A DNA stretch of 43,947 bases from Escherichia phage vB_EcoS_fFiEco03. The DNA lies in sequence record NC_073315.1. The stretch is one strand, 5' to 3'. The position numbers and the translations under genes were made by a program. The notes under the pieces were generated by a model, which was given only the letters and a program-made list of their open reading frames with translations, had not been told where the DNA came from and ran no database searches. Positions 12,076 through 37,360 of this stretch are shown here, piece after piece (within the stretch, counting starts at the first letter, position 1; each line of letters starts with the position of its first letter).

Positions 12076-12120
12076 CTTGTGGTATAAGAAGAGTAAAGGA
12101 TAGCTTTAGCGGGCGAAAAA

Positions 12121-12150
12121 GAGAGGGGTCGTGCCCTCTCTTTCCTTTAT
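12121..12150 (+). terminator. Intrinsic terminator after the major tail gene
   Basis: GAGAGGG-GTCGTG-CCCTCTC stem-loop followed by TTTCCTTTAT. Confidence 0.65.
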
Positions 12151-12182
12151 ACGGTAAATACACGAGCCTGACGAGGTGAATA

Positions 12183-12815
12183 ATGTTCTTGTATGAAGAA
12201 TTTGAAAAGATACCAGCATCAAAACGGGCGGTATCATGCCGTAAAACAATCTGCGGAGTCGGTGTCAACGATGCAGATTTCACCACCAGTATTTTCAACG
12301 GCAAAAAGTCTGTTAACCACCCGGTGTACGATATTTGGTGTGCGATGATATTCAGGTGCTACCATGGGTCCGTTAAGCATCCAACATACTCAGGAGTGGT
12401 AGTGTGTGAAGACTGGCTGTATTTCTCCAACTACTTTAAATGGTACAAAGATAACTACGTAGAGGGTTGGCATGTTGACAAAGATTTGCTTACGGATTCT
12501 AAAGAATACTCACCGGATACCTGTATATTTGTCCCAAGAGTTTTAAACAACTTTCTAACCGACAGCGCAGCGGCTAGAGGTGACCTACCGATAGGCCTTA
12601 CTTATAGGAAAACAAACGGCAAGATTCGATGCAGGGTTAATAATCCGCTAACCGGGGTGCGCGAAAACTTAGGCGATTTTACCGATTTGGATGAAGCCAT
12701 CAAGGCCAGAACGCTGCGGAAGTTAGAGATAGCCGGAGAACTTAAGCCACTTATGGATTCCATAGACGGGAGAATCTATCCGAGGGCCGTTTCTGTAATT
12801 AAGGCACAACGATAA
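12183..12815 (+). CDS. Putative homing endonuclease (HNH-like nuclease domain plus C-terminal AP2-like DNA-binding domain)
   Basis: N-terminal W..M..RC...HP.Y.G..VC.DW..F..F..W...EGWHVDKDLL...YSPDTC pattern; C-terminal GKIRCRVNNPLTGVRENLGDFTDLDEAIKA (AP2-like); free-standing between terminators. Confidence 0.55.
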   Translation: MFLYEEFEKIPASKRAVSCRKTICGVGVNDADFTTSIFNGKKSVNHPVYDIWCAMIFRCYHGSVKHPTYSGVVVCEDWLYFSNYFKWYKDNYVEGWHVDKDLLTDSKEYSPDTCIFVPRVLNNFLTDSAAARGDLPIGLTYRKTNGKIRCRVNNPLTGVRENLGDFTDLDEAIKARTLRKLEIAGELKPLMDSIDGRIYPRAVSVIKAQR

Positions 12816-12819
12816 AACT

Positions 12820-12845
12820 AAGGCCCCTTTCGGGGCCTTTTTCTT
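12820..12845. terminator. Bidirectional intrinsic terminator (28-nt sequence repeated at 24735..24762)
   Basis: AAGGCCCC-TTTC-GGGGCCTT with U-rich flanks on both strands; convergent junction. Confidence 0.7.
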
Positions 12846-14621: not shown

Positions 14622-14662
14622 GGTGTAGCTCCTGTTTGAGTTAACATTGTTGGTGTAAGTGA

Positions 14663-14691
14663 ATAGTATCCTATTATGTTGGGGTGCGCAA
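14663..14691 (-). promoter_or_regulatory. Sigma70-like promoter, class I (TTGCGC-N17-TACTAT), drives the reverse island
   Basis: On the - strand: TTGCGC, spacer ACCCCAACATAATAGGA, TACTAT. Near-identical to the + strand promoter at 37107..37135. Confidence 0.55.
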
Positions 14692-14799: not shown

Positions 14800-15216
14800 A
14801 TGAAACTTTCTGATTTTTATTACGAAGCTGAGGCAGAAAAAGGCGCCCGTATGCCGATACCACTGAAAGACGGCACCGATTCAGGGGAGTGGCTGAACGT
14901 TGTTTCACCGGAGGCAGACGTTGCTGTTAAAGCTATGAGGGCGTTTACACTTGCGTACCGCGCGGCATTAGGTAAATTGAAACCGCTTCGCGATAAATGC
15001 GAGGAACTGAAAGATTTCTCGGAATACAACATCAAGATGGAAGACGCCGCAACGGACCTTAACCGCCAGTTAGCGCTTGAACTGGTTAACGGTTGGAGTC
15101 TCGACGATGAATTTAATAAAGAGAACCTGAATACTCTTTTCTCACAATATAAACGACTCGCTGAACACGTTGTTGTTTTCCACAATGAACAGCTTCACCA
15201 ATTGCAGGAAAAGTAG
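14800..15216 (+). CDS. Tail assembly chaperone (gpG-like)
   Basis: 138-aa acidic protein directly upstream of the tape measure gene, with an overlapping downstream ORF in the -1 frame. Confidence 0.65.
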   Translation: MKLSDFYYEAEAEKGARMPIPLKDGTDSGEWLNVVSPEADVAVKAMRAFTLAYRAALGKLKPLRDKCEELKDFSEYNIKMEDAATDLNRQLALELVNGWSLDDEFNKENLNTLFSQYKRLAEHVVVFHNEQLHQLQEK

Positions 15217-15581
15217 ACGCGTTGCTCCAGTTTGCCCGTTGGAACTTCATAACCCGCCACAAACGGCGGGAGTTTGACAGTATCGCCGACGGGCATAAAG
15301 CCGCGCTAATTGCTATGGGGGTTATGCAAGACGCGCCGGAAGCAACGCAGGACACAGGGCCGGAATGCCCCCCTGAGCTATTAACCACCTTCGAGAAGTA
15401 CAGGGAAATCAAATTCACCCGCCGAGTGGACGATGATGGCATCAAGATGTACCCGCGCGAACAGTTAAGATGGTCGGATTTAGTGGCATACAGCACCGTT
15501 TCAGGCCAGAATATAGGCATGTTCGAATCTGACATCATCATGAGCTTAGACGCTATTTTCGAGGGTAGAAACGATGGCTGA
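15189..15581 (+). CDS. Tail assembly chaperone -1 frameshift extension (gpGT-like T segment)
   Basis: -1 frame open from 15189 and overlapping the last 8 codons of the G-like gene; candidate slip site GAA_AAG just before the G stop; ends overlapping the tape measure start. Confidence 0.45.
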   Translation, partial: TASPIAGKVDALLQFARWNFITRHKRREFDSIADGHKAALIAMGVMQDAPEATQDTGPECPPELLTTFEKYREIKFTRRVDDDGIKMYPREQLRWSDLVAYSTVSGQNIGMFESDIIMSLDAIFEGRNDG

Positions 15582-17910
15582 TGTAGCTAGTTTAGTTGTA
15601 AAAGTATCAGAGCAAGGCGCGAAAGCTACATCAGACCGTCTTGATAACCTTTCCAAGTCTGCAAAGGTAGCCGGAGCTGCGGTAGCGGGCCTCGCTTCCA
15701 TCGTCGCCGCTACCGCGTACAAGGCCGCACAGGAACTGGTAGACTCCCAACGGCAACTGGACAAGATGTCCGCCAGCCTGAAAACACTAACCGGAAGCAC
15801 GCAGGGGGCAAGACAGGCGTTAAGCATCCTGCAAGACTTCGCGCGCGACACTCCGTATGGCCTTGAACAGGCGGTAGAGGGATTCCGTAAACTGGTGGCT
15901 CTCGGCCTTACCCCCTCAGAAGAAGCGTTGCGCTCCTATGGCAACACTGCCGCTGCTATGGGTAAAGACCTTAATCAGATGATTGAGGCCGTTGCGGACG
16001 CTAGTACATTTGAATTTGAGCGCCTTAAAGAATTTGGTATCAAGGCCAAGCAGAACAAAAACGATGTTGAATTTACATTCCAGGGCACCACTACGGTAGT
16101 TAAGAAGAGCGCTGCCGACATCGAGCAATACCTGCTCAACATTGGTAACGTAAACTTCGCGGGGGCTATGGCGGACCAGGCCAACACACTTAACGGGGCC
16201 ATCGCCAGTGCCAGCGATTCCTGGTCGCAGTTAAAAATGACACTGGCTACCAGCCTTGATGTTGGTGCTCTTGCGGAACCTATCCGGTACATCGATGATT
16301 TAATCCAGGAACTTAACGCACAGGTGGCATCCGGTGAACTCGCCGCCGAGATGCGTATGTGGGGTGACATCGCATCAGAAGTGGGCAGCGCGATAGAGAT
16401 GTCGTTCGACGCGGCATTTGGTTTCGTAGGCGACGCGATAAACGGGCTGAATGAACTTTGGGATTTTAGCAGTAAAAGTATCACCGATAGCGGTGAACAA
16501 ACGGCGACAACCATCGCGGAATCAGCCGCCGATGCACTCGATTTCATAGCGGAAGAATTTACCGCGATGGAGCGATTCTTTGAAGATATGGTTAAAGGGG
16601 CACAGGACGCTGGCCGGTTGGTGAAAGCTGCCTTCACACCAGGGGAATCCGTAGACGTAGCAAAAAACATTAACTTCCAGTTAGGGATGGCACTGGATAC
16701 TCAGCGTGATGTTGCGGACCTGACCCGTAAAAGTTTCCGCGAACAGGTTGAGGCTCAGCAAAATATTGTCGCGCTTAAACGCGCAGCGTATGACATCGAC
16801 AAAGAAGCCGCTAAGGAAGAAGGGCTTAGTAAATTTAAGGTAACTGGTACTGGTGGCGGGTCCGAAGATGATAATGCTGGTGCAAAAGCCGCCAAGAAAG
16901 CTGCGGACGCGTTCGAGCGCCAGAAGAAAGCCGCGGAGGATTTCTACTACCAGTCGATTCATCTCAATGACGACGTATTCCAGAAAATAGAAGCTAATCA
17001 GGAGCAACAGTTAACCAAGCTACAAGAGTTTTACGGCAACCAGCTTCTTAGCGACCAGCAATACGAGAACGCCAAAACTCAAATTATGCTGGAGGCGGAC
17101 ACCGCACGTCAGGAAGAACTCGCCAAGCGGGAGAAAGAACGGCAGGAGAAGAACCAGAAAGGTGAAGACTTCATGGCTCAGATTATGGGTCAGAATGCCG
17201 CAGAGCTTGAGCTTTTGGAGATTCAGGAACAACAAAAACTTGACGTTGCAGACCGATATCGCGAACAGAACCTTATTAACGAGGAGCAGTACCAGGCTGC
17301 GGTTAATGCTATAAACGACCAGTATGCTTTGAAACGTGCCAACGCTACCGGTAACGCTTTCGGAATGATGGCGGATAACATGAAGGCCTCACTAGGGGAG
17401 GCGTCTGCCGCATACAAAGCGTTTGCCATTGCGCAGGCTACAATAGCCACATACACCTCTGCCATCGAGGCTTATAAATCTGCATCGGCTATCCCTATTG
17501 TTGGATGGGTGCTCGGGCCTGTAGCCGCCGCCGCGGCGGTAGCCGCAGGTCTGGCGAACATAGGTAAGATTCGCTCAGCACGTGAACAGGGTGGTAACTT
17601 AGCTGCCGGGCAGCTATCCACCATTGCAGAACGTAACAAGCCGGAAGTTATTATGCCTGCGGGGGCGTCACGCGTACGTACCGCGGAACAGATGCGCCAG
17701 ATTATGGGCGAGAACGGCAACAAGTCAGGCGGTGACAGCGTGACAATCGTCAACAACACCACCGGACGAGTTGATTCCGCCGTTACAGAGCGTGACGACG
17801 AAGGGCGGTTACGTGTTATCATCAGCGAAACAGTATCGGCGGCGTTACAAGATAGCAACAGTGCAATCTCCAAGTCCCGCCGGGCTACGCGAAACCAGCC
17901 GGGGTATTAA
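15574..17910 (+). CDS. Tape measure protein
   Basis: 778 aa, Ala-rich, long coiled-coil segments, positioned after the chaperone pair. Confidence 0.85.
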   Translation: MADVASLVVKVSEQGAKATSDRLDNLSKSAKVAGAAVAGLASIVAATAYKAAQELVDSQRQLDKMSASLKTLTGSTQGARQALSILQDFARDTPYGLEQAVEGFRKLVALGLTPSEEALRSYGNTAAAMGKDLNQMIEAVADASTFEFERLKEFGIKAKQNKNDVEFTFQGTTTVVKKSAADIEQYLLNIGNVNFAGAMADQANTLNGAIASASDSWSQLKMTLATSLDVGALAEPIRYIDDLIQELNAQVASGELAAEMRMWGDIASEVGSAIEMSFDAAFGFVGDAINGLNELWDFSSKSITDSGEQTATTIAESAADALDFIAEEFTAMERFFEDMVKGAQDAGRLVKAAFTPGESVDVAKNINFQLGMALDTQRDVADLTRKSFREQVEAQQNIVALKRAAYDIDKEAAKEEGLSKFKVTGTGGGSEDDNAGAKAAKKAADAFERQKKAAEDFYYQSIHLNDDVFQKIEANQEQQLTKLQEFYGNQLLSDQQYENAKTQIMLEADTARQEELAKREKERQEKNQKGEDFMAQIMGQNAAELELLEIQEQQKLDVADRYREQNLINEEQYQAAVNAINDQYALKRANATGNAFGMMADNMKASLGEASAAYKAFAIAQATIATYTSAIEAYKSASAIPIVGWVLGPVAAAAAVAAGLANIGKIRSAREQGGNLAAGQLSTIAERNKPEVIMPAGASRVRTAEQMRQIMGENGNKSGGDSVTIVNNTTGRVDSAVTERDDEGRLRVIISETVSAALQDSNSAISKSRRATRNQPGY

Positions 17911-17913
17911 CCA

Positions 17914-19305
17914 ATGAGTGATTTGAGATTCCCTATGTCCCTTCGACCAATAGTGTCGAAGGGGTACTCCCAAACGCGAGGGAGTAATATCTGGCGTACA
18001 GAAGTGCAAGGTGGCGTGCCGCGACAGGGGCGTGATACATACTTTGAGCCAGTGCCGATTAGCGTTACGCTCGTCGTATCGTCGCTCGGGCGACAGGCGT
18101 TCTATAGCTTCCTGAACAACATAGACGGCGGTGCGTCTTCATTTATCATGCCGCACGATACGGGTTTAGGTCTCGAAGACCACCAGGTACTTATTACGTC
18201 GGACATTAGCGACAGCACCGACGATGGTAAAAACTGGGTAATTACTTTCACAGCAACCGCGGAGCGGACTGCGATTCAGGAAGATACCTGCCTTACGAAG
18301 AATCTACCGGATTTGTTCGGTTGTTATGGGGATTGTCTGGGTAGTTTCCTGAAAATATACGCGAACTACGAGACTACGTTCCCGCGCATCTGGAGCGATG
18401 AAGGGTCCGCAGGATACCCTCCGATTAACCTTCTGGCGTCTACTCTTGATAGCCGCATTGTGTATGATGGGCCGCAGGTTTACTACATCAACCGGAACGG
18501 TAATCTTGTGCAGTCCGCCGCCAATGAATGGCCTCTTACGTTCATTGATGGTGTTGCGGTAGGGCGTGTGCCGCCAGAATCCACATCCAGCAATATCCTG
18601 ATTAAATCGTCGAAATTATCTGACGCATCGTGGGTTAAAACTAGAGCAACAGTGTCGGACGCAGTTGACGGATTTCTAAACGGCGGTACGTTCTCACTAG
18701 TCCCGACCCAGACAAACGACAGCCATCTCGTATATCAATCGGTGTCTTCCGCTTTTGCGGAGGGTGATGTATACACTCTCAGTTACGTTGCTAAGGCATA
18801 TGGTTATAATTATGCGAGACTTCGCGCCGCTGATGACGCTGGGTTTATCGCTGATTGTGTTGCTAACTTATCGACAGGGGTTATTTACGCGGGCGCCCCC
18901 GGCAGCGATATAGCAGAGCTTGGCGATGGTTGGTATCGATTTACAGAAACGGTAGCTATACGCCAGGGCGGCGCGTCTTCTCTGCTTTTAGCGTCATGGG
19001 TGTACAACAACTCCGCCGTTGGTTCATTTGTCGGTGACGGGGTTAGTGGGATATTAGTGTGCGCGATGCAAATAGAAAAATCACCTTTTGCCACGTCGCC
19101 AATAGTAACCGAATCGTCACCGGTAACCCGAACGACGGCATCCGCAAAAGTAACCATGAATGGTGCGACAAGCATTGACATTACCTACTCCGACGGCTCC
19201 GTGATAAACGTTAAGGCTGTTGACGGTTACGCCTCCATACCCCAAGCGGATTCGGCGTGGGGTAGTAAATATATCACCCGTATTGATTTTAATGTGGACG
19301 GTTAA
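17914..19305 (+). CDS. Distal tail protein (gpM-like N-terminus with long C-terminal extension, possible carbohydrate-binding module)
   Basis: 463-aa ORF immediately after the tape measure gene; position matches lambda-like M; extra C-terminal domain. Confidence 0.5.
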   Translation: MSDLRFPMSLRPIVSKGYSQTRGSNIWRTEVQGGVPRQGRDTYFEPVPISVTLVVSSLGRQAFYSFLNNIDGGASSFIMPHDTGLGLEDHQVLITSDISDSTDDGKNWVITFTATAERTAIQEDTCLTKNLPDLFGCYGDCLGSFLKIYANYETTFPRIWSDEGSAGYPPINLLASTLDSRIVYDGPQVYYINRNGNLVQSAANEWPLTFIDGVAVGRVPPESTSSNILIKSSKLSDASWVKTRATVSDAVDGFLNGGTFSLVPTQTNDSHLVYQSVSSAFAEGDVYTLSYVAKAYGYNYARLRAADDAGFIADCVANLSTGVIYAGAPGSDIAELGDGWYRFTETVAIRQGGASSLLLASWVYNNSAVGSFVGDGVSGILVCAMQIEKSPFATSPIVTESSPVTRTTASAKVTMNGATSIDITYSDGSVINVKAVDGYASIPQADSAWGSKYITRIDFNVDG

Positions 19306-19308
19306 CTT

Positions 19309-19824
19309 ATGGGTCAGGAATCAGTAGAAGCAGCCTACCGCCGTAAGCTGGCCTCAAACCCCGACGGCGAGATTGACTACACGACGCTGGAGATAGTGCA
19401 TCCGCTTCTTTCGAAGCGGTATTTACTTGTGCGCGGAACTTCTGACCTGACGGCAACGTTAGAGACCGGAGAAGTAGTTACGTTTGAGGCCACACCAATG
19501 GAGGCTAAAGGGGCCGCCAACAATAACGACATGGACCAGCGAGCATCGTTCGCATTGCCCGATATTGGAAACCAGTTAGACGATGAGATGGATAGGATAC
19601 CGCCCGATAATACCGTGTTGCCTAAGTTTATATTCCGCCGTTTTGTTAGTACCGATTTGTCTTACCCGGCTGACGGGCCTGTTGTGTACGAGTTGCAGTC
19701 GATAAACCAGGAAAAGGGGCTATTTACCGCCGACGTTGGCGTTCCTATGTTGAACCAAAGGGCCACTGGTGAACTAATGACCCCTTCAGTAATCCCATTG
19801 TTACGGGGCGTTTTGTCCACATGA
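19309..19824 (+). CDS. Minor tail protein (gpL-like)
   Basis: 171 aa following the M-like gene; synteny. Confidence 0.6.
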   Translation: MGQESVEAAYRRKLASNPDGEIDYTTLEIVHPLLSKRYLLVRGTSDLTATLETGEVVTFEATPMEAKGAANNNDMDQRASFALPDIGNQLDDEMDRIPPDNTVLPKFIFRRFVSTDLSYPADGPVVYELQSINQEKGLFTADVGVPMLNQRATGELMTPSVIPLLRGVLST

Positions 19825-20186
19825 ATATTAATTCTTATACAGGGTTGCCGTACGACTTTCGCCGTCGTAATTGCTGGCACCATGTCCGTAACGTTCGTGC
19901 GGATGTAGGCCTCTTTACGCCTGAGTTTAACGTCGCTTCGCCAACACAGATTAACGACGCCTTCGAAGAAGGCCATAAAGATACTAAAGGCCTTGTACGC
20001 GTAGAAACTCCGCAAAACTTCGATGCCGTGCTGATGGCAACACGGCACAGAAACCGTGTAATCTGGCACGCCGGAGTATACTATGACGGTATGGTTAGTC
20101 ATTGCGAGCTGGCGAGTCGCCAGGTACGGTTAGACCGTCTGGAAGACTTGCGCGAAACTTATGCGGAGATAGAATTTTGGCGCTGA
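19821..20186 (+). CDS. Tail assembly protein (gpK-like)
   Basis: 121 aa, ATGA-coupled to upstream gene; conserved Cys/His residues; synteny with K. Confidence 0.5.
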   Translation: MNINSYTGLPYDFRRRNCWHHVRNVRADVGLFTPEFNVASPTQINDAFEEGHKDTKGLVRVETPQNFDAVLMATRHRNRVIWHAGVYYDGMVSHCELASRQVRLDRLEDLRETYAEIEFWR

Positions 20187-22732
20187 CATTACATTACACC
20201 CGTAACGAAGACGGTACTTTCGACCGCGAACGGCACAACGTACCGCCGATGGAATACGTCGTCGCTAACATCCCCGACGGGGTGCCTGTACGTATTTACC
20301 GTGGCGAGATCGGCGAGGACACGGAAGTAACTGAAGATTTCGAAGCGCTGAAAGAAGACGATGTTTTCCATATTATCGAAGGCGCTGGTGGCGGTGGCGG
20401 TTTTCTGGGTAAACTCCTGGACCCTTTGGGTGTGCTTAAATTTGTTACCAAGTTGATTTCTCCGTCGCAGAAAACGCCTAAAACGAGTTTAGCGAACCAG
20501 CAGGCTGAGTCCCCCAACAACAGCCTGACGGACCGAAACAATAAACCCCGTCCATATGAACGGTCGTATGATATTTGCGGCAGAGTCCAGACTATCCCTA
20601 ATGACCTCATGACTACCTATAAAATATTCGATGAATCTGGTCGCATTATTGAATACGGATACTACGATGCCGGTCGTGGGTATCTGGACATCAAGGCCGA
20701 AGATATTACCGACGGCGATACTAAGGTACAGGAGATTACGGGGACCTCTGTCGCGGTGTACGCGCCGTTTACATCCCCCAACAATACAAATACCCCGCAG
20801 CTTCTGGTGGGGGAACCTATCAATCAGAATCTTTATATAACTATCGCGTCTAATGAAGTAGATGGAGCCGTTCTTAAAGCCCAGAACGATATTCGGGTCA
20901 ACCCAAGCGACACGGGCCGCGTGAGATATGACTCTGCTACAAAAATTGGATACCTGTATGACGACACGGGGGATTCTGGCTTCGCGGAAATATTATCTGT
21001 TGGTGACACCGCGTCGTTCAATAACTTTGACGTTCCGGACGTAACAAATACCAACGGCAACTTTCGTGTTCTTTATGTCGATAACTTCGAGCTGCGGGTC
21101 GACACCGGCGGCGCGTCTAATTGGGCTGCTTTAGGCTCAACCACCTATTCACTTTCCCAGAGAAGTGACACGTGGGTAGGCCCCGTGGATACGTATGAAA
21201 GAACATTAACCGACTGGACCACCTTAAACCGCCTGGAAGTTGAACGCGTAGTAGCCAACATCGCTGCCGCTAACGGTATGTATAAAGACAACGGCAGTAA
21301 ATTGCGTACGTCGGTAACTATTGAACTCCAATACCAACTACTCGATGAAACCGGTGCCCCATACGGGAGTATCTATTCAAAACAGGCCGTTATATCTGGT
21401 CGGTCCGCCGACTACACCGGAGTTACTATTTACGCCGACTTGCCCATGAGGTCGAAAGTTAGGGTACGTGCCCGTCGTGTTACCAACCTGGACCTTGATT
21501 TCGAGGGCACCGTGGTAGACGAGGTTTCCTATATCAACCTTTACGGTCAGGTCCGTGACACTACGCCACATTACGGCAATCGTACTACCGTACACTCGGC
21601 ACGTAAGCAGACGCCGCGGGCCGCAGAGATTAAGCAACCACAGTTACGTATGGTCGCCACAGAGATGGTGTACAAATACCTCGGTAATGGTGTATTCGAC
21701 ACCGTAATGACACCGAATACTCAGGCCATTCAATCATTAATACGTCTCGCCCGTGACCCAGTAGTAGGTAATCTCAACCTAACAACATCCAATATGGACA
21801 AGTTGTTAGCGACTCAGACCGAGATTGAGAATTATTTCGGTAACGTGGAGGCGGGTCAATTCTGCTACACCTTTGACGATTATAAAACGACCATGCAGGA
21901 TATCATCAGCACAATAGCTGATGCTATTTTCTGCACTCCATATCGTAAAGGGCAAGACATATTACTGGATTTCGAGCGCCCGCGTATGGGGCCGGAAATG
22001 GTATTCACACATCGAAGTAAGACAACAGCTTCGGAAAAGTGGACGCGCACATTCAACGACGCTCAGGTATACGATAGTCTTAAGTTCTCCTACATCGACC
22101 CAGATACTAACGTAAAAGAGACCATCAGCATTCCCGCCGAGGGCGGTGTTAACACAGAAACGTATGACTCTAAAGGTATACGTAATTATCGTCAGGCGTA
22201 CTGGGCGGCGTACCGTCGGTACCAGAAGAACCTGTTGAAGAAGGTGACGGTATCATTCACGGCGACAGAAGAAGGGGTTTTTGTGCTTCCAGGACGGGCA
22301 ATAAGCGTAGTTAAAGGCTCGCGAGTAGCACCTCAAGATGGTTATGTCGTTGCCGTTAATGGGCTTACCCTTACTCTTTCTCAGCCGGTTACGTTTACTC
22401 CGGGGGATGACCACTCACTGATTCTTAAGAAGAGAGACGGCGGAGTTCAAAGTGTTGCCGTTGTTCAAGGAAGTCACGACCGTGAAGTGGTTATGCTATC
22501 TGCGCCACAGGAGGCAATTTACACAGGGAATAGCGCACTAAAAACTGAGTTTTCATTCGGTAACGAAGCAAGGCATAATGCTCAGATGATTCTTGTTTCT
22601 ACAGTTGACCCCGGAGACGACAGAACGGTTAAGATTACCGGGATTAACTATGAAGCAGATTTCTATAAATACGACGGCGTCGCGCCATACGGCAGCGGTT
22701 TCTCCGACGGATTCAGCGATGGTTTTAATTAA
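20177..22732 (+). CDS. Tail tip / central tail fibre protein (gpJ-like, possibly including an I-like N-terminus)
   Basis: Large ORF after the K-like gene; TTG start at 20177 with GGAG RBS (alternative ATG at 20249); Gly-rich GAGGGGG linker near the N-terminus. Confidence 0.65.
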   Translation: MALTLHYTRNEDGTFDRERHNVPPMEYVVANIPDGVPVRIYRGEIGEDTEVTEDFEALKEDDVFHIIEGAGGGGGFLGKLLDPLGVLKFVTKLISPSQKTPKTSLANQQAESPNNSLTDRNNKPRPYERSYDICGRVQTIPNDLMTTYKIFDESGRIIEYGYYDAGRGYLDIKAEDITDGDTKVQEITGTSVAVYAPFTSPNNTNTPQLLVGEPINQNLYITIASNEVDGAVLKAQNDIRVNPSDTGRVRYDSATKIGYLYDDTGDSGFAEILSVGDTASFNNFDVPDVTNTNGNFRVLYVDNFELRVDTGGASNWAALGSTTYSLSQRSDTWVGPVDTYERTLTDWTTLNRLEVERVVANIAAANGMYKDNGSKLRTSVTIELQYQLLDETGAPYGSIYSKQAVISGRSADYTGVTIYADLPMRSKVRVRARRVTNLDLDFEGTVVDEVSYINLYGQVRDTTPHYGNRTTVHSARKQTPRAAEIKQPQLRMVATEMVYKYLGNGVFDTVMTPNTQAIQSLIRLARDPVVGNLNLTTSNMDKLLATQTEIENYFGNVEAGQFCYTFDDYKTTMQDIISTIADAIFCTPYRKGQDILLDFERPRMGPEMVFTHRSKTTASEKWTRTFNDAQVYDSLKFSYIDPDTNVKETISIPAEGGVNTETYDSKGIRNYRQAYWAAYRRYQKNLLKKVTVSFTATEEGVFVLPGRAISVVKGSRVAPQDGYVVAVNGLTLTLSQPVTFTPGDDHSLILKKRDGGVQSVAVVQGSHDREVVMLSAPQEAIYTGNSALKTEFSFGNEARHNAQMILVSTVDPGDDRTVKITGINYEADFYKYDGVAPYGSGFSDGFSDGFN

Positions 22733-22744
22733 AGAGGACTCTAT

Positions 22745-24736
22745 ATGTCAAGCGGATGCGGTGACGTTTTAAGCCTGGCGGATTTACAAACCGCCAAGAA
22801 GCACCAGATTTTCGAAATCGAGGTTATCACCGGTAAAGCAGGCGGTGTAGCCGGTGGAGCAGATATTGATTATGCAACGAACCAGGTTACCGGGCAGACT
22901 CAAAAGACTCTGCCCGCCGTGTTGCGTGATACTGGTTTTTCTCCTGTATCGTGGGATTTCTCCACTGGCGGTACTCTTACTGTTAATGACCGTGACAAAG
23001 TTGTCTACGACCCTGTAAGTAAAACGTGGTATTCATACGCAGGTACGTTGCCGGTTGTAGTCCCCTCGGGCTTTGACCCGGTAGGCAACGCAGACTGGAA
23101 GCCACAGACTGACCATGATTTGCGTAATGATTTGGCGTCAAGTACCGCCGGTTTAGGGGCTTCACTGGTGTCTTTTTCCAACGGTAATACCGTTGAAACA
23201 TTATCCGACGCAGATGGCGCTAAGAACATCGGCAGTGGAGAAAGGACATTGCTTGAGCACAACAATGATGTTTTGCACTCAAAAGACTTCCCAACACTGC
23301 AGGCAGCTATAGATGCATCTTTGCAAAAAAATGATCTACTGGTGTCTCCTGGTAATTATACTGAAAACGTGACGCTTGGTAATGCGCAACTGAAAGGCGT
23401 AGGTGGTGCTACGGTAATAAAGCCACAAGGTGATTTTTCAACTGCAGTGATGGCAAAATTATCAACACCACATTGGCAATACAGGCATAGTTGTAATTTT
23501 GAAATAGACGGAACCGGTACAACTGGTTCTGTCGGTTTTGGTTATGACCCTACGGACCAGTACTCGGGTCGTCACAATCTAAGCGATACCTACATCCATC
23601 ACATTAATAAAGCAATTTCTAAACCTTCTGGAAATATTGGTAATACTTTTCGTAGTATAGGTATTAACAATTGTGACTGGGGATATCACGCCATCAGTGG
23701 TACAGAGATGCACTGTGGAGCAGACACTCTGTATAACTTCCATATGAATAGCATTAGTACTTACGCTGTGTATCTGAATGCAACTATAGGAGCATCCTCT
23801 ACAGGAGGGGGAATTGGTGGTTGGTGGTTAAAAGACTCTATTATTGAAGGCTCAGAAGGTGGCGGGGTATATCTTAAGAATAAGCCAGGAGATTGCCCAA
23901 GTGCACCGTGTGGAATATCAAATGTATGGTTTGAGGCCATAGCCACTGCTGATGCAGTAAATGTTGATGGTGCTGCTATAGAACCAAGAACTTTACATTT
24001 AATTGACACAAGCATTTTCTATGCTGAATATTCATACATAAACAGCATAAAATTAGAAAGGTCAAACCTTATAACATACGGCTGTCGTTTCGATAATGCC
24101 GATGGAAATCAGAGTATAGAGATAGATGCTGAGAGTACTATTAAGGCTTACGATACTTATCTTAATGGCACTCCCGGTAAAGATGTTATTGTTGAGAGTA
24201 TAGCTTCACAGACGGGTAAGCTTCACACCATTGACCTGTGTTTGAGGGGTTCTATTACAAAAGGCAGACTGTTTAATACTCCTTCGGGGAATAAGTTGGC
24301 AGCAATACCTTTTGATGACGGAACGCATACATGGGGCGGGAATGCTAGTGTAACAGGGACCCTGGTAGGTATGGGGCTTCATTCAAAAAATTGTGAATCA
24401 TTTACATTCCCCGCTAACGCTGTTCTGGAATTAACTGACTCCAAAGTCAATATCACCAGCGGTAAGTGGTATGTATGGGGCATTAATGCCAGACTTAATT
24501 CTGGTGATATGAATATGAGGATTACAGGGGGGATCACTTTGGGTAGTGTTTATCTCAAGCAAGGTGAATGGGTCAGTACATTTGGAGTTGCTCAGGCCGA
24601 GGCATCAGAATCTGCAACGTTATACGTTACAACTTCTTCTGCGAGTGTTGTATATCTTGCTGACTATTTTGTTGCTGAATTTGCATCTCAGAGTGAGGCA
24701 ATGGCTTTCGCAAATACCAGAATGTCGTTGGTCTAA
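22745..24736 (+). CDS. Tailspike protein (conserved N-terminal anchor plus beta-helix-like receptor-binding or depolymerase domain)
   Basis: 663 aa with AGAGGA RBS; N-terminus MSSGCGDVLSLADLQTAKKHQIFEIEV recalled as the Jersey-like tailspike anchor; C-terminal part AT-richer with repetitive beta-helix-like motifs. Confidence 0.75.
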   Translation: MSSGCGDVLSLADLQTAKKHQIFEIEVITGKAGGVAGGADIDYATNQVTGQTQKTLPAVLRDTGFSPVSWDFSTGGTLTVNDRDKVVYDPVSKTWYSYAGTLPVVVPSGFDPVGNADWKPQTDHDLRNDLASSTAGLGASLVSFSNGNTVETLSDADGAKNIGSGERTLLEHNNDVLHSKDFPTLQAAIDASLQKNDLLVSPGNYTENVTLGNAQLKGVGGATVIKPQGDFSTAVMAKLSTPHWQYRHSCNFEIDGTGTTGSVGFGYDPTDQYSGRHNLSDTYIHHINKAISKPSGNIGNTFRSIGINNCDWGYHAISGTEMHCGADTLYNFHMNSISTYAVYLNATIGASSTGGGIGGWWLKDSIIEGSEGGGVYLKNKPGDCPSAPCGISNVWFEAIATADAVNVDGAAIEPRTLHLIDTSIFYAEYSYINSIKLERSNLITYGCRFDNADGNQSIEIDAESTIKAYDTYLNGTPGKDVIVESIASQTGKLHTIDLCLRGSITKGRLFNTPSGNKLAAIPFDDGTHTWGGNASVTGTLVGMGLHSKNCESFTFPANAVLELTDSKVNITSGKWYVWGINARLNSGDMNMRITGGITLGSVYLKQGEWVSTFGVAQAEASESATLYVTTSSASVVYLADYFVAEFASQSEAMAFANTRMSLV

Positions 24737-24740: not shown

Positions 24741-24766
24741 AAGGCCCCTTTCGGGGCCTTTTCTCT
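24741..24766. terminator. Bidirectional intrinsic terminator (identical copy of the 12820 hairpin)
   Basis: AAGGCCCC-TTTC-GGGGCCTT followed by TTCTCT; junction of the convergent tailspike and replication operons. Confidence 0.7.
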
Positions 24767-27217: not shown

Positions 27218-27502
27218 CTAACTATAATAGTTCGCTATTAGGTCGTCAACCTGTTTGAACGACCCGACGACAAAAACATTCGCGCCGCGTTTGCGCATAC
27301 GCTCATGCTCACGTAACTGGTGTGGGTCTGGCTTCGTGTTTTCGTCTTTCTTAACCTCGACGAACCAGACGATACCGTTGGGGAGAATTACCAGCAGGTC
27401 GGGGGCGCCGGAACGCCCCTCGTAGGAAAGTTTACGAACGAGGCCGCCGATAGCCTCGAATCGCTCTTTTGCGTATTTCTGGATGCGCCCCTCTTTAGTC
27501 AT
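27218..27502 (-). CDS. VRR-NUC domain nuclease (putative)
   Basis: 94 aa from ATG 27502 (ATGA-coupled); pattern G.PDLLVILPNGIVWFVEVKK...Q consistent with a VRR-NUC PD-(D/E)xK core (recalled). Confidence 0.55.
   Translation of the reverse strand: MTKEGRIQKYAKERFEAIGGLVRKLSYEGRSGAPDLLVILPNGIVWFVEVKKDENTKPDPHQLREHERMRKRGANVFVVGSFKQVDDLIANYYS
27221..27249 (-). promoter_or_regulatory. Sigma70-like promoter, class II (TTGACG-N17-TATAGT), embedded in the 3' end of the VRR-NUC gene
   Basis: On the - strand: TTGACG, spacer ACCTAATAGCGAACTAT, TATAGT. Same design as the promoters at 30954 and 33569. Confidence 0.55.
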
Positions 27503-30900: not shown

Positions 30901-30953
30901 CGTGATTTCTCGCTTTTCAGTTTACTCCGGGAACTGCCCGGCCAGTGATTAGA

Positions 30954-30982
30954 ACTATAATAGCTAACTATTCAGGTGTCAA
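30954..30982 (-). promoter_or_regulatory. Sigma70-like promoter, class II (TTGACA-N17-TATAGT)
   Basis: On the - strand: TTGACA, spacer CCTGAATAGTTAGCTAT, TATAGT; upstream of the SSB-like gene. Confidence 0.6.
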
Positions 30983-30986
30983 CACT

Positions 30987-32261
30987 TTATTCTAAATCTT
31001 CTTCACTAACACGACTCCACTCAGGCCGTTTGTCGCCCGCCGTTGTGATGCATGGGGCACCTGGTTTACGTGTGATGAAGTCTTTCAGTTCTTCTTCCGG
31101 CACAACTTTAACCGCTTCGGTCGGCGTCATGAGCACTTCTTTAGTCAGCTTGTCGCCGTAGAGTTCTGTTACTTTCTCCGCGTCTTTCCACGCACGATTG
31201 CCCATCTTACCTTCAACCAGCTTGTACCCAGGAACTTTCTTACCGGAATGCAACGCGGCAGCCATAGCTTTCTCAACCTTGTCGATGTGCTGGCGCAACA
31301 ACGGCAACTTCTCGTACTCAGCTACGAGTTCCTCCGGCGTAAGTTCCAGCGCAAAGTCGTCCTCCAGTTCTTCCGCCAGTACATCGTTAACGGTTTTTGT
31401 ACGCGCGGCGCATTGTTCAGAGAACCGACACCACTGACAACCATCGACCGACGGCTTAAAGTCAGACGCTTTCAGGTTCTTCTTGCCGCGGGAATAGGCA
31501 TCGAGCGCTAACAGTGCTCGTTTTTGTGCAAACTTAGCGAACAGTTCAAGGCCTTCAACCGAGATGTCCCACTCCGACGCACCGCCCGCGTACGGCTGGA
31601 AGATAACCAGACGGACCACGGTGATGTTATAACGTCTCTTGAGTCTGCGATAAACACCGAGAGCGTAAAGCATAAGCTGCTTGTTTTCTTTCGCTTCGAC
31701 ACGATGCCGACCCGTTTTAAGGTCGCCAATAATGAGCATGTACTCGTCGGTGTTAGCCAGTTCCTGAACGGCAACAAGGTCAGCCGTTCCGAACGTCTCT
31801 AAATCATCTTCCTCGCCTTCTTCACCTTCAACGGGTACTTTGTACCCGGGGTGTAGAATCTGCGTAAGATTGATACGCATTTCCAGCTTGGCGTAAGTCG
31901 CTACATCAATAATCGCTTTGCAGTAGTCGGTATACTTTTGCACCTGCTCAATCATGTCCGCCGTAATCAGTACCGCGCCTTTCATCGGGCTGATTAGCGC
32001 CTTAATCTGGCCTTTACCCTCATCCAGCACGTAAGCACCGACTTCACGCTCTAGCGGCAACGCAGTTCCGCGGATATAGGCGTTGAGATGGACCTCAGCT
32101 ATTGTGTGCATAGCTGTGCCTAATACAGCAGCTTTACCGGACGTGTTAGGGATATCTTTTTCACAGGCAAGTGATGCGGCGCAACTTAGCCACTTTTTAG
32201 CGCCTGACGGCGACAGTAATGCGTGAACATCGTTATTGCCGCCGCGTTCCTTTAAAATCAT
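30987..32261 (-). CDS. PD-(D/E)xK exonuclease, Cas4/RecB-like (DUF2800-like) with Cys cluster
   Basis: Start at ATG 32261 (ATGA-coupled); C-terminal CQWCRFSEQC plus N-terminal Cys; IIGDLKTGR and QLMLYALG motifs. Confidence 0.65.
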   Translation of the reverse strand: MILKERGGNNDVHALLSPSGAKKWLSCAASLACEKDIPNTSGKAAVLGTAMHTIAEVHLNAYIRGTALPLEREVGAYVLDEGKGQIKALISPMKGAVLITADMIEQVQKYTDYCKAIIDVATYAKLEMRINLTQILHPGYKVPVEGEEGEEDDLETFGTADLVAVQELANTDEYMLIIGDLKTGRHRVEAKENKQLMLYALGVYRRLKRRYNITVVRLVIFQPYAGGASEWDISVEGLELFAKFAQKRALLALDAYSRGKKNLKASDFKPSVDGCQWCRFSEQCAARTKTVNDVLAEELEDDFALELTPEELVAEYEKLPLLRQHIDKVEKAMAAALHSGKKVPGYKLVEGKMGNRAWKDAEKVTELYGDKLTKEVLMTPTEAVKVVPEEELKDFITRKPGAPCITTAGDKRPEWSRVSEEDLE

Positions 32262-33538: not shown

Positions 33539-33568
33539 TTTATCTCTCCTCTCGTTTGGTATGGGCTA

Positions 33569-33597
33569 ACTATAATAGCGAACTATTCACATGTCAA
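33569..33597 (-). promoter_or_regulatory. Sigma70-like promoter, class II (TTGACA-N17-TATAGT), divergent from the Cro-like gene
   Basis: On the - strand: TTGACA, spacer TGTGAATAGTTCGCTAT, TATAGT. Confidence 0.6.
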
Positions 33598-33621
33598 TGG
33601 GCTTTTCTAAAATAATTAATA

Positions 33622-33630
33622 TGGTACTAT
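33622..33630 (+). promoter_or_regulatory. Extended -10 promoter (TGgTACTAT) for the Cro-like gene
   Basis: TG-N-TACTAT with a poor -35; overlaps the second ACTATTCACAT(A/G)TCAA repeat. Confidence 0.45.
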
Positions 33631-33661
33631 TCACATATCAACTGACTAAGGAGTAATTGAC

Positions 33662-33894: not shown

Positions 33895-36162
33895 CTATTC
33901 CAAATCTTCCTCCGTCACCACCAGCATCTCATTAGGTTCGTATATTGTCTTCGGAATCTTGTTATCCGTTATCCTGGTGTTCAGCCTGTAACGGCCGGGT
34001 ATTATCTGATTGTTTTCGTCAGTACCCGGAACAAGATACCCGGCCTCAACCATTTTCTTAATCTTCCCGCGTTCTATGGCTTCTTTGGAGTTAAACGCCT
34101 TCGCGTTGGGGTCGGACTGCGCTAGCTTATTTGCCGCTGCTACCGTGATGCCCTCGTTGCCGTTGTAGGTTCCTTCTGCCAGTTCGAACGCGGCCAGTAT
34201 CGTGGCTTCCGAACTGTTGACGGCGCTCTCTACGGTTTTACGTACATTTTCTTTACCTTCCTTTGTCAGCCCTTCTTCCCGCTCTTTCTCCTCGTCAGTT
34301 TTGAACGGCTCGAAACCCCACGGCATTAACACAAGCGCTTTGTGCGGCTCCGGCAGGTCCAGGTTTACGATTGTGCCGTATTCCTCTGTGTTACCCAGGA
34401 ACTCAACCGCACGGTATTCTTTCGGCGGCGGCGCTTCACGGAACTGTACAGACTCCAGCACCATACCAACCGTCTTCTGTTGAGGTCCGTGCTTAAATTT
34501 AGAGTGGTATACATTTATCTGACGGTCGGTTGCGCGTTCAATTGTCAGTTCCACATCGACGCCTGCGTACAGCGCGCCACTGCCACGGGCTTTCTTTCCA
34601 CCCTTCGGGGTATGGTGGACGACGCCTACCGCGGCTTTAGTTGTGTCGCGTACTTCTTTCATGATTGCGATAACTTTACCCATACCGATTGCCGTTGATG
34701 AACTGTTCTCGTCGAACTTATCGATCGTCAGGGCCAGCGTCTGGTTGAGGGTGTCAAACGCAACCATGCCAATAGGTTCATCCCCCGCAGTTTCACGCAT
34801 CAACTTAATCAGGTTTTTCAGTTTGCCGACTTCACCCATGTCGATGACATGTACATAATCTTTACCTTCTTCGCCGTATTTAGCCGCGAGTGCATCGATA
34901 CGTGTACGTGTAGCCGCACCACCTTCACCATCAATATAGAAGTGATGGCAACGCTGGGTATCCGCCCCGGCAAACCGGTATCTGGAGGCACTCAGGTACA
35001 TCATACCCAGTGTATAGAACGATTTATACGTGCCGGATTCCCCGACAATATCCCAGATGCAATCCGACGGCATGTACCCTTCAACGACGAAATCAGCCTT
35101 TACCGGTTCCGGTAGCTCATCCTCTTCTGAGTCCTCGTCGTCTTCCAGGTCGTCCAGGCTGCATGAAACTGATTCACGCGCACCCCAACCGATGGCCTCT
35201 GCGACTTCACTAAATGGCAGCCCGGTCGCGTCGCACGCATACTTCCACACCTCTTTTGGCGACATGCCTTCGGTTGCCGTAATGTCGGTGTCGTGAATCA
35301 TGGTTACGTTCGGCGCTTCGTACCCTTCACGCGGGAAGCACAGCAGGAAGTCATCCGGACGCGGCGTCGGGTCGCTGTAGTTTTCTGCGTGTTCTGGCGT
35401 AGCTGGCATTTTCAGGCCGCGCGGTGTCATGATACCGCCGTACTCGAATGCCAGTGCTTCAAACGCATCAGTAAACGCGGTGCGCAGTTCTTCCGGTATC
35501 TGGTAATCCGATGCGCTGCTCACCTCATAATCCGGGATGCCTTCCAGCAGACGGTCAGGGTCAATAAGGTCATTGCGGCGTGACCAGACGACCTCTGAGT
35601 TAACCGGCGGCAGGTACATAGGCTGGGACAGAGTGAACCCGCTGTGGTCGGCGCCCATGCCTTTGAAGAAGTGCTCCAGCAATCCATGACGGACGCGGAT
35701 GATGTCACCACCTTCAACCGGACGAGCCAGCGGCATGACGACACGAAAGCGCGGCGACTCATCAATATGTGACGCCGTGGTATAGAGGCACATGGCTTTA
35801 CGGCTGCGCTTAACCCGGCGCACCGCTTCCTGGTACTCTTCCGGCGTTGCGCTGTCGAAGTCCAGATACGCCAGCGACGATTTGCTTACAGACGCGTCAC
35901 AGCGATAAAAGAAGCCTTTACGGGCCTGCTTAAAGTCACCTGTTTCCGGGTCTTTTACGGTGCTGTGTATAGAATCGCACGCGGCAGTGATATAACCTGG
36001 CGCGGTCTTAGGGTTAATCCCGTCACGAACAGCATCAAGCGGCTGAATTAACTCTTTCAGGTCATCCAGTGTTGCCGTATGTGTGGTTCTGACGTTTATA
36101 TCCTTTTTCTCCGCCCGCGCGTTGCGACGAGACCACGAGTAGGATAAAATTACATCGGACAT
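33895..36162 (-). CDS. Primase-helicase (N-terminal primase-like region plus C-terminal RecA-like ATPase)
   Basis: 755 aa; Walker A GESGTYKS in the C-terminal half; AAGGA RBS. Confidence 0.7.
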   Translation of the reverse strand: MSDVILSYSWSRRNARAEKKDINVRTTHTATLDDLKELIQPLDAVRDGINPKTAPGYITAACDSIHSTVKDPETGDFKQARKGFFYRCDASVSKSSLAYLDFDSATPEEYQEAVRRVKRSRKAMCLYTTASHIDESPRFRVVMPLARPVEGGDIIRVRHGLLEHFFKGMGADHSGFTLSQPMYLPPVNSEVVWSRRNDLIDPDRLLEGIPDYEVSSASDYQIPEELRTAFTDAFEALAFEYGGIMTPRGLKMPATPEHAENYSDPTPRPDDFLLCFPREGYEAPNVTMIHDTDITATEGMSPKEVWKYACDATGLPFSEVAEAIGWGARESVSCSLDDLEDDEDSEEDELPEPVKADFVVEGYMPSDCIWDIVGESGTYKSFYTLGMMYLSASRYRFAGADTQRCHHFYIDGEGGAATRTRIDALAAKYGEEGKDYVHVIDMGEVGKLKNLIKLMRETAGDEPIGMVAFDTLNQTLALTIDKFDENSSSTAIGMGKVIAIMKEVRDTTKAAVGVVHHTPKGGKKARGSGALYAGVDVELTIERATDRQINVYHSKFKHGPQQKTVGMVLESVQFREAPPPKEYRAVEFLGNTEEYGTIVNLDLPEPHKALVLMPWGFEPFKTDEEKEREEGLTKEGKENVRKTVESAVNSSEATILAAFELAEGTYNGNEGITVAAANKLAQSDPNAKAFNSKEAIERGKIKKMVEAGYLVPGTDENNQIIPGRYRLNTRITDNKIPKTIYEPNEMLVVTEEDLE

Positions 36163-36220
36163 GTTGTATTTCCTTCAGCAAGTAATTTAGCCTCGGCGTT
36201 CACCGCGTCGGGGCTTTCTT

Positions 36221-36511
36221 TTATCTTTTAGCCAGACATTCCATCAAATGCTCGTACTTACGGTAATAATCTACGACAATCTCATCACCGAAATACTGAT
36301 ACACGTACGCTAAGTGGTCAGAGACATCGATGGAAGCCGACATTGTGCTGAGGCTTCTTAGACTAATCAACTGCAATTCTTCTGTAACGCAAAACGGCGA
36401 ATATGAGTCCAGTTTACAGGAAACGTTAAAACACAACGCGTATTCACCTTGCACTAAATAAACCATATAAGCATTGTCGTTCTCTTTATCGTGGAAAATT
36501 ACACCTTTCAT
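36221..36511 (-). CDS. Hypothetical protein, 96 aa
   Basis: ATGA-coupled to the upstream HTH gene; AT-rich. Confidence 0.45.
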   Translation of the reverse strand: MKGVIFHDKENDNAYMVYLVQGEYALCFNVSCKLDSYSPFCVTEELQLISLRSLSTMSASIDVSDHLAYVYQYFGDEIVVDYYRKYEHLMECLAKR

Positions 36512-36690
36512 TTCACGTTCTCCTTAATCCACGCTTCAACTTTATTGCGGTCGAATGTCCCTGGTAAACGGCGGCCCATAACCTTAATACAGCAATCCGG
36601 GAATTTGCCACTGCGCAACCAGTTATTAATTGTCTGACGTGTCACCCCGATACGTTCAGCTACTTCATTCTGGGTCATGTAATGCTGCAT
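36508..36690 (-). CDS. AlpA/Xis-like HTH DNA-binding protein
   Basis: Start at ATG 36690 with AGGAG RBS; MTQNEVAERIGVTRQTINNWLRSGKFP resembles the AlpA/excisionase HTH family. Confidence 0.55.
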   Translation of the reverse strand: MQHYMTQNEVAERIGVTRQTINNWLRSGKFPDCCIKVMGRRLPGTFDRNKVEAWIKENVK

Positions 36691-36721
36691 TTTTATATCT
36701 CCTGTTTGTTTAGTGGAACCG

Positions 36722-36750
36722 AGTATAGGATAGCGGGAATGTAAAAGCAA
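36722..36750 (-). promoter_or_regulatory. Sigma70-like promoter (TTGCTT-N17-TATACT) for the AlpA-like/primase operon
   Basis: On the - strand: TTGCTT, 17-nt spacer, TATACT; divergent from the 36798 promoter. Confidence 0.5.
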
Positions 36751-36797
36751 CCAAAACTGAACACAAAGTTACTAAGATGCAAAAGATGCTACTGGTA

Positions 36798-36826
36798 TTG
36801 ACTTTTACTTAAAAATATGCTAAGCT
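36798..36826 (+). promoter_or_regulatory. Sigma70-like promoter, class III (TTGACT-N17-TAAGCT, extended -10 TG)
   Basis: Near-identical to 4992..5020 (spacer differs at 2 positions). Confidence 0.6.
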
Positions 36827-36831
36827 TCACT

Positions 36832-36941
36832 GAGCTTGTGAGATATCGCAAGCGACCGCGGAGCGGCAGGGAACGCAACGCGTGCCATTAGGCACTTGAG
36901 TGTAGTTCCGCTGGCGCTTTCGGAAGGGCCAAAGTCTATTG
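36832..36941 (+). ncRNA. Promoter-proximal conserved structured RNA element, copy B
   Basis: Starts at predicted +1; alignable to 5027..5134 with one indel; hairpins GCTTGTG/CGCAAGC and GTGCC-ATTA-GGCAC correspond to GCTTGT/ACAAGC and GGAC-GTAA-GTCC in copy A. Confidence 0.45.
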
Positions 36942-37106
36942 TTAATCCCGCCTAAATACCCAAGTCACTGATAATTAAAAGTTTATATAGTTGCCGTAAG
37001 CAAGGTAGAGAGTACTTCACTCCGCTGGGGTGGGCTAACGCCCACCCACTGCGTTGCGTACTCTTTTAAGAAACGAAAGAATCACAACGGCAACGTAACT
37101 ATTCTC

Positions 37107-37135
37107 TTGCACACCCCAATATAATAGGATACTAT
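37107..37135 (+). promoter_or_regulatory. Sigma70-like promoter, class I (TTGCAC-N17-TACTAT)
   Basis: TTGCAC, spacer ACCCCAATATAATAGGA, TACTAT; followed by a conserved AACGAGA..GGAG leader. Confidence 0.6.
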
Positions 37136-37168
37136 TCACTTATCTAAACGAGACAGAGGAGTAGGGTT

Positions 37169-37360
37169 ATGTATAAGAAGGGGCAGTTGGCGACGACGAA
37201 ACGCGGTGGGCAGTACGTAATAGTGTTGCAGGACGAGAACGAGTATGACGAGGATAATATAGTCGAAGTATGGGGCCTGGTAAGAAAGAAACCCGGGTTC
37301 GCCTTACGCGATAATCTGGAATTAATTGGCAACAATTTTAAATTCAAAGGGGTGAAGTGA
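37169..37360 (+). CDS. Hypothetical early protein, 63 aa
   Basis: ORF with GAGGAG RBS downstream of the 37107 promoter. Confidence 0.5.
   Translation: MYKKGQLATTKRGGQYVIVLQDENEYDEDNIVEVWGLVRKKPGFALRDNLELIGNNFKFKGVK

Follow-up and report, generated by a model that had tools for sequence, protein, structure and literature searches.

A structured RNA family coupled to its own promoter in Guernseyvirinae phages

The genome of Escherichia phage vB_EcoS_fFiEco03 carries two diverged copies of a unit made up of a promoter and a structured RNA core of about 110 nt, and comparison with related phages shows that they belong to a real and strongly supported family of structured RNAs that is widespread, coupled to its own promoter, and apparently undescribed. 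The window, by which we mean the whole 43,947 nt stretch that was analysed (NC_073315.1), is a complete Kagunavirus genome (Guernseyvirinae), and the region within it to which an earlier note on this DNA had drawn attention is 99% identical to the Escherichia phages Ivi and fFiEco02. We found no description of the element in the Kagunavirus, Jerseyvirus, Guernseyvirinae or MB78 literature searched, in which the genome notes on related phages report predicted promoters and a class I motif only.

Two copies of a promoter and RNA core in one genome

The replication genes of fFiEco03 are read leftward, from about 36.7 kb to 24.8 kb, and there are three rightward units. The early small genes, lysis, terminase, portal and head genes run from 37.2 kb, through the point where the ends of the window meet, to 4.3 kb; a spanin/scaffold/capsid to tail-tube unit occupies 5245–12815 (5.2–12.8 kb); and the tail genes make up the third rightward unit, at 14800–24736 (14.8–24.7 kb). 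Three near-identical bidirectional terminators of the form AAGGCCCC-loop-GGGGCCTT end these units, at 4323–4343, 12820–12839 and 24741–24760 respectively, and the first of these, which is strong, lies directly upstream of the locus (locus A) that contains one copy of the element. Additional terminator-like sites are present inside both of the rightward units that have a copy, at 7592 and 12820, and at 38471 and 2756. The other copy, copy B, lies at locus B and is indeed divergent from the replication operon, as the earlier note had described it, with the leftward helix-turn-helix (HTH) gene and the primase-helicase operon beginning at 36690. The cumulative GC-skew minimum also falls at locus B, at about 36000–37000; it matches the switch in gene orientation and therefore does not mark an origin on its own. 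We note too that phage vB_EcoM_SHAK7858 (OR594183.1) is filed under Autographiviridae/Kayfunavirus, yet its genome is collinear with those of Kagunavirus.

The copy B unit at 36798–36941 is a diverged paralogue of the copy A unit at 4992–5134, the two being collinear with several indels. A repeat search pairs 36798–36830 with 4992–5024 (88%) and 36897–36941 with 5090–5134 (87%), blastn aligns locus A with locus B over 148 columns at 81% identity (E = 1.5e-28), and the chance expectation for a 41-nt probe taken from copy B is 0.00 occurrences. The presence of a second copy of the promoter and core at 36798–36941, first proposed from a reading of the sequence alone, is therefore borne out by the repeat search, the full alignment and blastn. 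The shared segment opens with the first base of the -35 hexamer and closes with the last base of CTATTG, and the flanks are unrelated; because the homology runs exactly between these points, the promoter and the RNA evidently travel together.

The copy B promoter (36798–36826, + strand) has a -35 hexamer TTGACT at 36798–36803, a TG dinucleotide at 36818–36819 and a -10 hexamer TAAGCT at 36821–36826, and it is 88% identical to the promoter of copy A (4992–5020, + strand), in which the corresponding elements lie at 4992–4997, 5012–5013 and 5015–5020, again with TAAGCT as the -10. The copy B promoter takes the form TTGACT-N14-TG-n-TAAGCT, where n is c, which is that of a sigma-70 promoter with an extended -10. 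The TG is invariant among the relatives and the base that follows it is a C, an A or a G, and it is this combination of a fixed TG and a variable following base that gives the extended -10 signature. A consensus scan misses the copy B promoter because TAAGCT matches TATAAT at three of six positions and the scan ignores the TG. Transcription is predicted to start near 36832 in copy B and near 5027 in copy A, which would put the first helix at the extreme 5′ end of the RNA; from the sequence we infer promoter firing, the start and end of the transcript, and any effect on termination.

In copy A only, a palindrome, CTATTCGAATAG (4980–4991), adjoins the -35 hexamer. The sequence TGTTGGAATAA occurs exactly twice in the window (4968–4978 and 5751–5761), each time just 5′ of a TTGAC, once before copy A and once before the scaffold gene; this pair may be a shared activator site, two such matches being not significant (reached in 18 of 100 shuffles). 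There is a candidate second promoter between the spanin and scaffold genes, and expression of the capsid may therefore not rest wholly on copy A.

RNA fold and covariation

The core of copy B (type B1; 36832–36941, + strand) has a minimum free energy of -49.3 kcal/mol (z = -3.9) and scores 108 bits with a covariance model of the family, and the core of copy A (type A1; 5027–5134, + strand) scores 138 bits. In copy B, the 5′ hairpin P1 lies at 36834–36853 and is followed by P2, a long irregular helix closed by CCG/CGG (36856–36923), within which are the apical hairpin P3 (36882–36895) and the 3′ strand of a conserved internal loop, UGAGUGUAG (36897–36905); beyond P2 come a tentative P4 (36926–36937) and the invariant tail UCUAUUG, which ends at 36941, all on the + strand. 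P1, P2 with its CCG/CGG closure, P3 and the conserved asymmetric internal loop are shared by all of the types described below, with a core length of about 110 nt and an irregular P2-P3 helix of about 22 bp. P4 is weakly supported and its register differs among types. A local hairpin, CCGC-GGN-GCGG, rivals the base of P2, with one compensatory event (in type B2) and an extension in B4, and may be a folding intermediate.

Relatives were gathered by an exact-pattern scan of IMG/VR, a flank-pattern scan of metagenomes, BLAST on phage records and capsid-anchored loci, and all of them were then searched with the covariance model. They fall into eight sequence types with 58–90% pairwise identity, the named ones being A1, A1′ and A2 at locus A, and B1 (the type in the window), B2, B3 and B4 at locus B, and each type folds alone into the common architecture. 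In the combined alignment, which was fitted to the covariance model and is for that reason biased toward structure, 94% of the cells are paired, against 29–37% when the partners are slid by 1–3 columns, and both sides have changed in 17 of the 29 pairs; none of 500 column shuffles reached the observed values. A plain MAFFT alignment gives identical helices and the key covariations, including CG/UA/AU and AU/UA/GC at two P2 pairs.

Type A2 is the strongest witness for the RNA structure. Its core is about 60% identical to that of A1, and the sequences of P1, P2b and P3 are entirely different while the architecture is unchanged; for example, ACGCU/AGCGU replaces GCUUGU/ACAAGC in P1 and both still pair, as do the alternatives UCGCG/CGCGA and CAG-GUAAC/GUUAC-G-CUG in the middle of P2. 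The B copies make up four lineages that have diverged by up to 25–30% and have kept their helices through compensatory changes and paired indels. The suggestion that the element is no chance repeat but a structured RNA accordingly holds, since the four B lineages and A2 all keep the fold despite their divergence, and the possibility, which the earlier note had allowed for, of a recent duplication with no covariation in relatives is contradicted by the compensatory changes in the B lineages. Judged by these substitutions, the fold is under selection.

The sense RNA is that of the + strand, as indicated by the conserved G-U pairs and by the predicted energies of the two strands (-49.3 versus -37.6 kcal/mol, favouring the + strand by 12 kcal/mol). 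The most conserved of the unpaired parts are GA(A)GC on the 5′ side of the internal loop, AG(Y)GUA on its 3′ side, and the tail UCUAUUG. We observe also that the -10 hexamer co-varies with P1: TAAGCT is found with GAGCTT at +1 to +6, so that the two form an inverted repeat AAGCTC-N5-GAGCTT (5015–5032 and 36821–36839), and in type A2 a TACGCT -10 accompanies a P1 of TACGCT-TTC-AGCGTA (L226, about 1995–2036). A transcription start 7 nt past the -10 would, in type A2, cut into the 5′ arm of P1.

No Rfam 15 family has a match at the gathering threshold anywhere in the window, and there are only chance-level matches at E < 10 for 36700–37200; ARAGORN reports no tRNA or tmRNA in the window. A 36-codon open reading frame in copy A (within 5040–5150), which starts in the P1 loop and is listed as a hypothetical protein in some records, was considered as a coding explanation and rejected: it is startless in types B1, A1′ and A2, is reduced to 19 codons in B4 and is shifted in frame in B3, and no reading frame is conserved across the types.

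Distribution and interchangeable leaders

Copy A is the ancestral and near-universal member of the pair, and copy B is an optional paralogue. BLAST against phage records finds type A1 in 179 records, from phages of E. coli, Salmonella, Raoultella and Shigella, and type A2 in 268, nearly all of them Salmonella phages of the Jersey/SETP3-like group, so that A1 and A2 together account for about 450 sequenced Salmonella and E. coli phages. Throughout Jerseyvirus and Kagunavirus the site of locus A is constant, ahead of the operon of the Rz-spanin gene, scaffold and major capsid genes, and in a five-genome alignment spanning two genera the A1 core has 98–100% invariant columns, exceeding every 50-nt window of the capsid gene. 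A copy at the second place, locus B, is present in only about 41 of the 179 records, and most relatives have unrelated promoter-plus-leader cassettes there instead. We found no copy of the element at the third rightward unit, that of the tail genes, in a covariance-model search, none in more distant capsid relatives (38–91% capsid-protein identity, with a different gene order), and none on the host side, where 5,426 genomes of E. coli and a set with one genome for each species were covered. The locus-B leaders of K1G and SP-101 were considered as distant homologues of the core and rejected on comparison; a loose gapped pattern, CAGGNAAC...TGAGTGTAG, matched about 100 loci of IMG/VR by chance, and none of these fits the covariance model.

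Downstream of the core the two loci of fFiEco03 have unrelated sequences. At locus B the core is followed by an A+T-rich variable linker (36942–37006, + strand), which is common to K1G, a phage without the locus-B core, and then by a long terminator-like hairpin at 37007–37068 (+ strand; predicted fold), the 3′ arm of which enters a UUUU at 37064–37067. The GC hairpin that had been placed near 37028–37052 is present, at 37027–37047 (GGGGTGGGC-TAAC-GCCCACCC), as the tip of this longer hairpin, but it lies outside the repeated unit; because the hairpin tail is found also in K1G, it belongs to the resident leader and not to what was duplicated. The extent first given to copy B thus holds for the promoter and core, whereas the variable region and GC hairpin are interchangeable locus-B leader tails. 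At locus A the leader linker (5135–5200, + strand) is conserved over about 62 nt, with a small hairpin, AGUAA-loop-UUACU, and the motif AGAUUACGCCGU..AUGUUUA, and we note that a single-stranded linker motif, AGATT(A)CGCCGT..ATGTTTA, is common to A1 and A2 (5135–5200 here, and 2123–2200 in L226). It leads into a predicted intrinsic terminator at 5201–5229 (+ strand), GCCCCGC-loop-GCGGGGC followed by UUUACUUAU, which is the top-ranked site in a terminator scan and stops 16 nt short of the start codon of the spanin gene (5245). All 36 of the type A1 loci that were read retain this terminator; its loop varies, and its stem shows one compensatory change of C-G to U-A. Type A2 has a different GC hairpin at the equivalent site before the spanin ribosome binding site, again with a compensatory variant, and its U tract is poor (UUAGCGUAU), so that it may fail to terminate.

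GC hairpins of yet other sequence lie 3′ of the core in types B2 and B4, and no copy lacks such a hairpin, which is stable and accompanied by a U-containing tract, 60–110 nt beyond the core. The core and the downstream hairpin fold independently, with no alternative pairing between them. The tails attached to the core at locus B are of at least three unrelated kinds, and all of them end, with their hairpin and U-containing tract, about 60 nt before the class I promoter. The same locus holds, among the relatives, at least three non-homologous promoter-plus-leader cassettes (L043, 35090–35400; L042, 36686–37000; L170, 236–470), the 5′ and 3′ halves of which recombine, as in ST20, where the core is found with an SP-101-type tail and its GGGCAGG terminator. 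Within the K1G-type leader at locus B lies a 28-nt stretch that is perfectly antisense to the terminator hairpin of the locus-A leader (blastn E = 2.6e-11; in phage K1G, L042, about 36775–36810 versus about 4615–4642; also in L174, L175, L176 and L007). Such antisense stretches in K1G-type phages are 27–28 nt long and perfect or near-perfect, and exist in three distinct sequences; in K1H both loci differ from those of K1G at one loop position, and these changes are not complementary.

The repeated class I promoter motif that was predicted to follow copy B is found there, outside the repeat, with the promoter at 37107–37139 (+ strand), the repeated motif at 37122–37146 and the palindrome AATAG-GATA-CTATT at 37123–37136. 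It belongs to a family of strong promoters in the window with AATAG-N4-CTATT over the spacer and -10 (4895–4925, 14661–14691, 27220–27263, 30953–30996, 33568–33641 and 37122–37146), and a class I promoter consensus has been noted previously (PMC9825357). The palindrome looks like an operator for a phage repressor. The class I motif is termed a phage-polymerase promoter in the genome note of a related phage, although the annotation of fFiEco02, a close relative, lists no RNA polymerase gene.

Possible functions and comparison with known systems

That the two copies amount to a dedicated RNA-based regulatory device, as the earlier note argued, is inferred from where they lie and what surrounds them. 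The reading we prefer, and think quite possible if still short of probable, is that of a leader which is coupled to its promoter, acts in cis and controls whether polymerases pass the terminator-like hairpins downstream of it. The strong host-type promoter and the RNA of about 110 nt that begins at about +1 would form a single module, and the nascent RNA, having formed P1 and the long irregular helix with its conserved internal loop, would act in cis on its own polymerase, either alone (as does the HK022 put RNA) or with a phage or host factor. Polymerases starting from this promoter would then pass the hairpin 60–110 nt downstream and the later terminators in the rightward operons. For copy A, the unit served would be the one that runs from the spanin, scaffold and capsid genes to the tail tube (5245–12815); from copy B, transcription would continue across the class I early promoter, which is repressible, and reach the early genes and those for lysis, terminase and portal. 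That the core and promoter move together while the tails are interchangeable suggests that the function goes with the polymerase that makes the RNA, or with the RNA itself, and not with the adjacent gene, and the terminator-like hairpin that always comes after the RNA, at locus A directly before the late genes, gives a layout like that of processive antitermination. The terminators 5′ of locus A and inside the units point to a need for read-through. Among 30 small or unassigned open reading frames scanned against PHROGs we found no described Q, N or other antiterminator family, the only recognisable regulators being two HTH proteins, and we count this in favour of read-through based on RNA. 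Counted against a read-through role in cis are the lack of any likeness to put in sequence or structure, the candidate second promoter ahead of the scaffold gene, the poor U tract of type A2, the A2 start that would lie inside P1, the tail unit that lacks a copy, and the many relatives that have no copy B and carry unrelated leaders at locus B. It is unlikely, in our estimation, that the family constitutes a second, independently evolved class of factor-free antiterminator RNA that reprograms the RNA polymerase of E. coli and Salmonella and is portable with its promoter across some 450 sequenced virulent phages of the kind used in phage therapy.

Some of the same features could be read differently. 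In the main rival reading, a discrete and abundant small RNA, of about 200 nt from copy A and about 235 nt from copy B, might act in trans, its targets being RNAs or proteins of the host or the phage, with the downstream genes expressed by leak-through or from other promoters; this seems somewhat unlikely to us. It would fit the presence at every copy of a dedicated promoter, a hairpin and a U tract, the form of the locus-B cassettes, including those of K1G and SP-101 (a promoter, a 200–300-nt non-coding RNA and a hairpin before a separate early promoter), and the highly conserved, seed-like single-stranded linker of copy A, and the 27–28 nt K1G-type antisense stretch hints at RNA-RNA interplay between the loci. 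However, the U tracts of the terminators are short or interrupted and that of A2 is poor, the copy A hairpin is placed 16 nt from the spanin start codon in the manner of a 5′ leader, the antisense match in K1H lacks a compensating change, and neither a complement of the conserved loop elsewhere in the phage nor a similar sequence in E. coli genomes was found. A role in processing or stability is more doubtful, whether the P2-P3 helix were an RNase III-type site, the 5′ end a protector and the half-life of late mRNA the quantity that is set, or whether the RNA were the site of an autoregulatory phage protein. A stacked helix that makes about two turns and contains an asymmetric internal loop, a P1 at the very 5′ end, loop strands GA(A)GC and AG(Y)GUA conserved as for protein contact, and a long untranslated leader before highly expressed genes are all what such an element might show, but the joint duplication of promoter and RNA is left unexplained by it, and a role in the translation or stability of an mRNA is hard to see for copy B, since a terminator-like hairpin and a further promoter stand between it and the first gene.

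The order of conserved core, variable linker and terminator hairpin is also that of a ligand-sensing riboswitch or attenuator, with the core as aptamer and the downstream hairpin as expression platform. This was already disfavoured and is very improbable, as the core and hairpin fold independently with no mutually exclusive pairing, the hairpins and linkers are unrelated, interchangeable and 60–110 nt distant, and there is no match to an Rfam family. We would give equally little weight to a replication element, such as a promoter-driven primer or an origin-activating transcript beside the primase-helicase operon: copy B is back-to-back with that operon, an A+T-rich stretch comes after it and the GC-skew minimum is at 36–37 kb, but this minimum falls where the genes change orientation, copy A, which is the universal one, sits among structural genes, and the core is absent from locus B in most relatives. 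A functionless scar of recent duplication or recombination could account for junctions at short shared sequences, for example GTCTATT, which is also in the K1G leader. It is contradicted already by the covariation and is scarcely credible, given four B lineages up to 25–30% diverged that retain their helices by compensatory changes and paired indels, and copies A and B in the window that are about 20% different with several indels besides.

Members of the Guernseyvirinae, which include Jersey-like phages of Salmonella and K1G-like phages of E. coli, are some of the therapeutic and biocontrol phages most often isolated, and an RNA at the capsid operon across essentially the whole clade offers a handle on how late genes are timed with the host polymerase only. 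If the RNA does act on RNA polymerase, put-type RNAs would number just two classes, and synthetic biology would gain a compact part that combines promoter and RNA; if it acts in trans, it would be a widespread phage small RNA. On either reading it is a new RNA family suited to Rfam.

Several known systems resemble the element in part. The lambda pR′-qut-6S RNA-tR′ module likewise consists of a constitutive-looking promoter and a short leader with an intrinsic terminator directly ahead of late genes, here those for lysis (Rz) and head, with the copy A terminator at 5201–5229 (weaker in A2) in the corresponding place; it differs in that a conserved RNA fold is a feature of the element described here and not of the lambda 6S leader, and in that a Q family protein was not found among the 30 small open reading frames. 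The nut sites of lambda are, similarly, paired cis-acting RNA sites near the starts of divergent operons, but nut is a short boxA with a 15-nt boxB hairpin and requires N, and the element described here is a multi-helix domain of 110 nt, with no N-like protein detected in the same set of 30. The RNase III sites of T7 likewise have an irregular helix, some two turns long and containing an internal loop, in an intercistronic or leader position, and differ in having neither coupling to a promoter of their own nor this conserved loop. Of the traits of Hfq-type trans-acting small RNAs (a promoter of their own, a Rho-independent terminator with a long U tail, and a conserved seed that complements targets), the promoter is present, the U tracts are short or interrupted, and no target was found in the phage.

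Another parallel is with HK022, in which the put RNAs give factor-independent antitermination through the beta-prime zinc-binding domain of RNA polymerase. An unfiltered covariance-model search over the HK022 PL/PR region found nothing at putL, with the best match elsewhere at E of about 3; as there is no similarity in sequence or structure to put, the mechanism proposed above is argued from analogy of position. The put RNA is about 70 nt long, with two stem-loops in a V shape and a triplex in stem I, and putL begins at the 5′ end of the transcript (PMC9378689), whereas the phage element measures about 110 nt and is built of P1, a long arm formed by P2 and P3, and possibly P4; by length, architecture and profile it falls outside the put family. 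Its host is a virulent siphovirus and not a lambdoid phage, and copy B seems to lack a conserved -10-like pause element, which in the lambda Q system falls within the first ~25 transcribed bases: by eye, AAGTAT is present at about +11 to +16 in A1 and in B2–B4, and copy B has AGATAT, without the critical A at position 2. The likeness, which is a match of position only, is that of two related, sense-strand, promoter-proximal copies heading two units, and both systems combine a sigma-70 promoter, a structured non-coding RNA and downstream terminators with no recognisable dedicated antiterminator protein.
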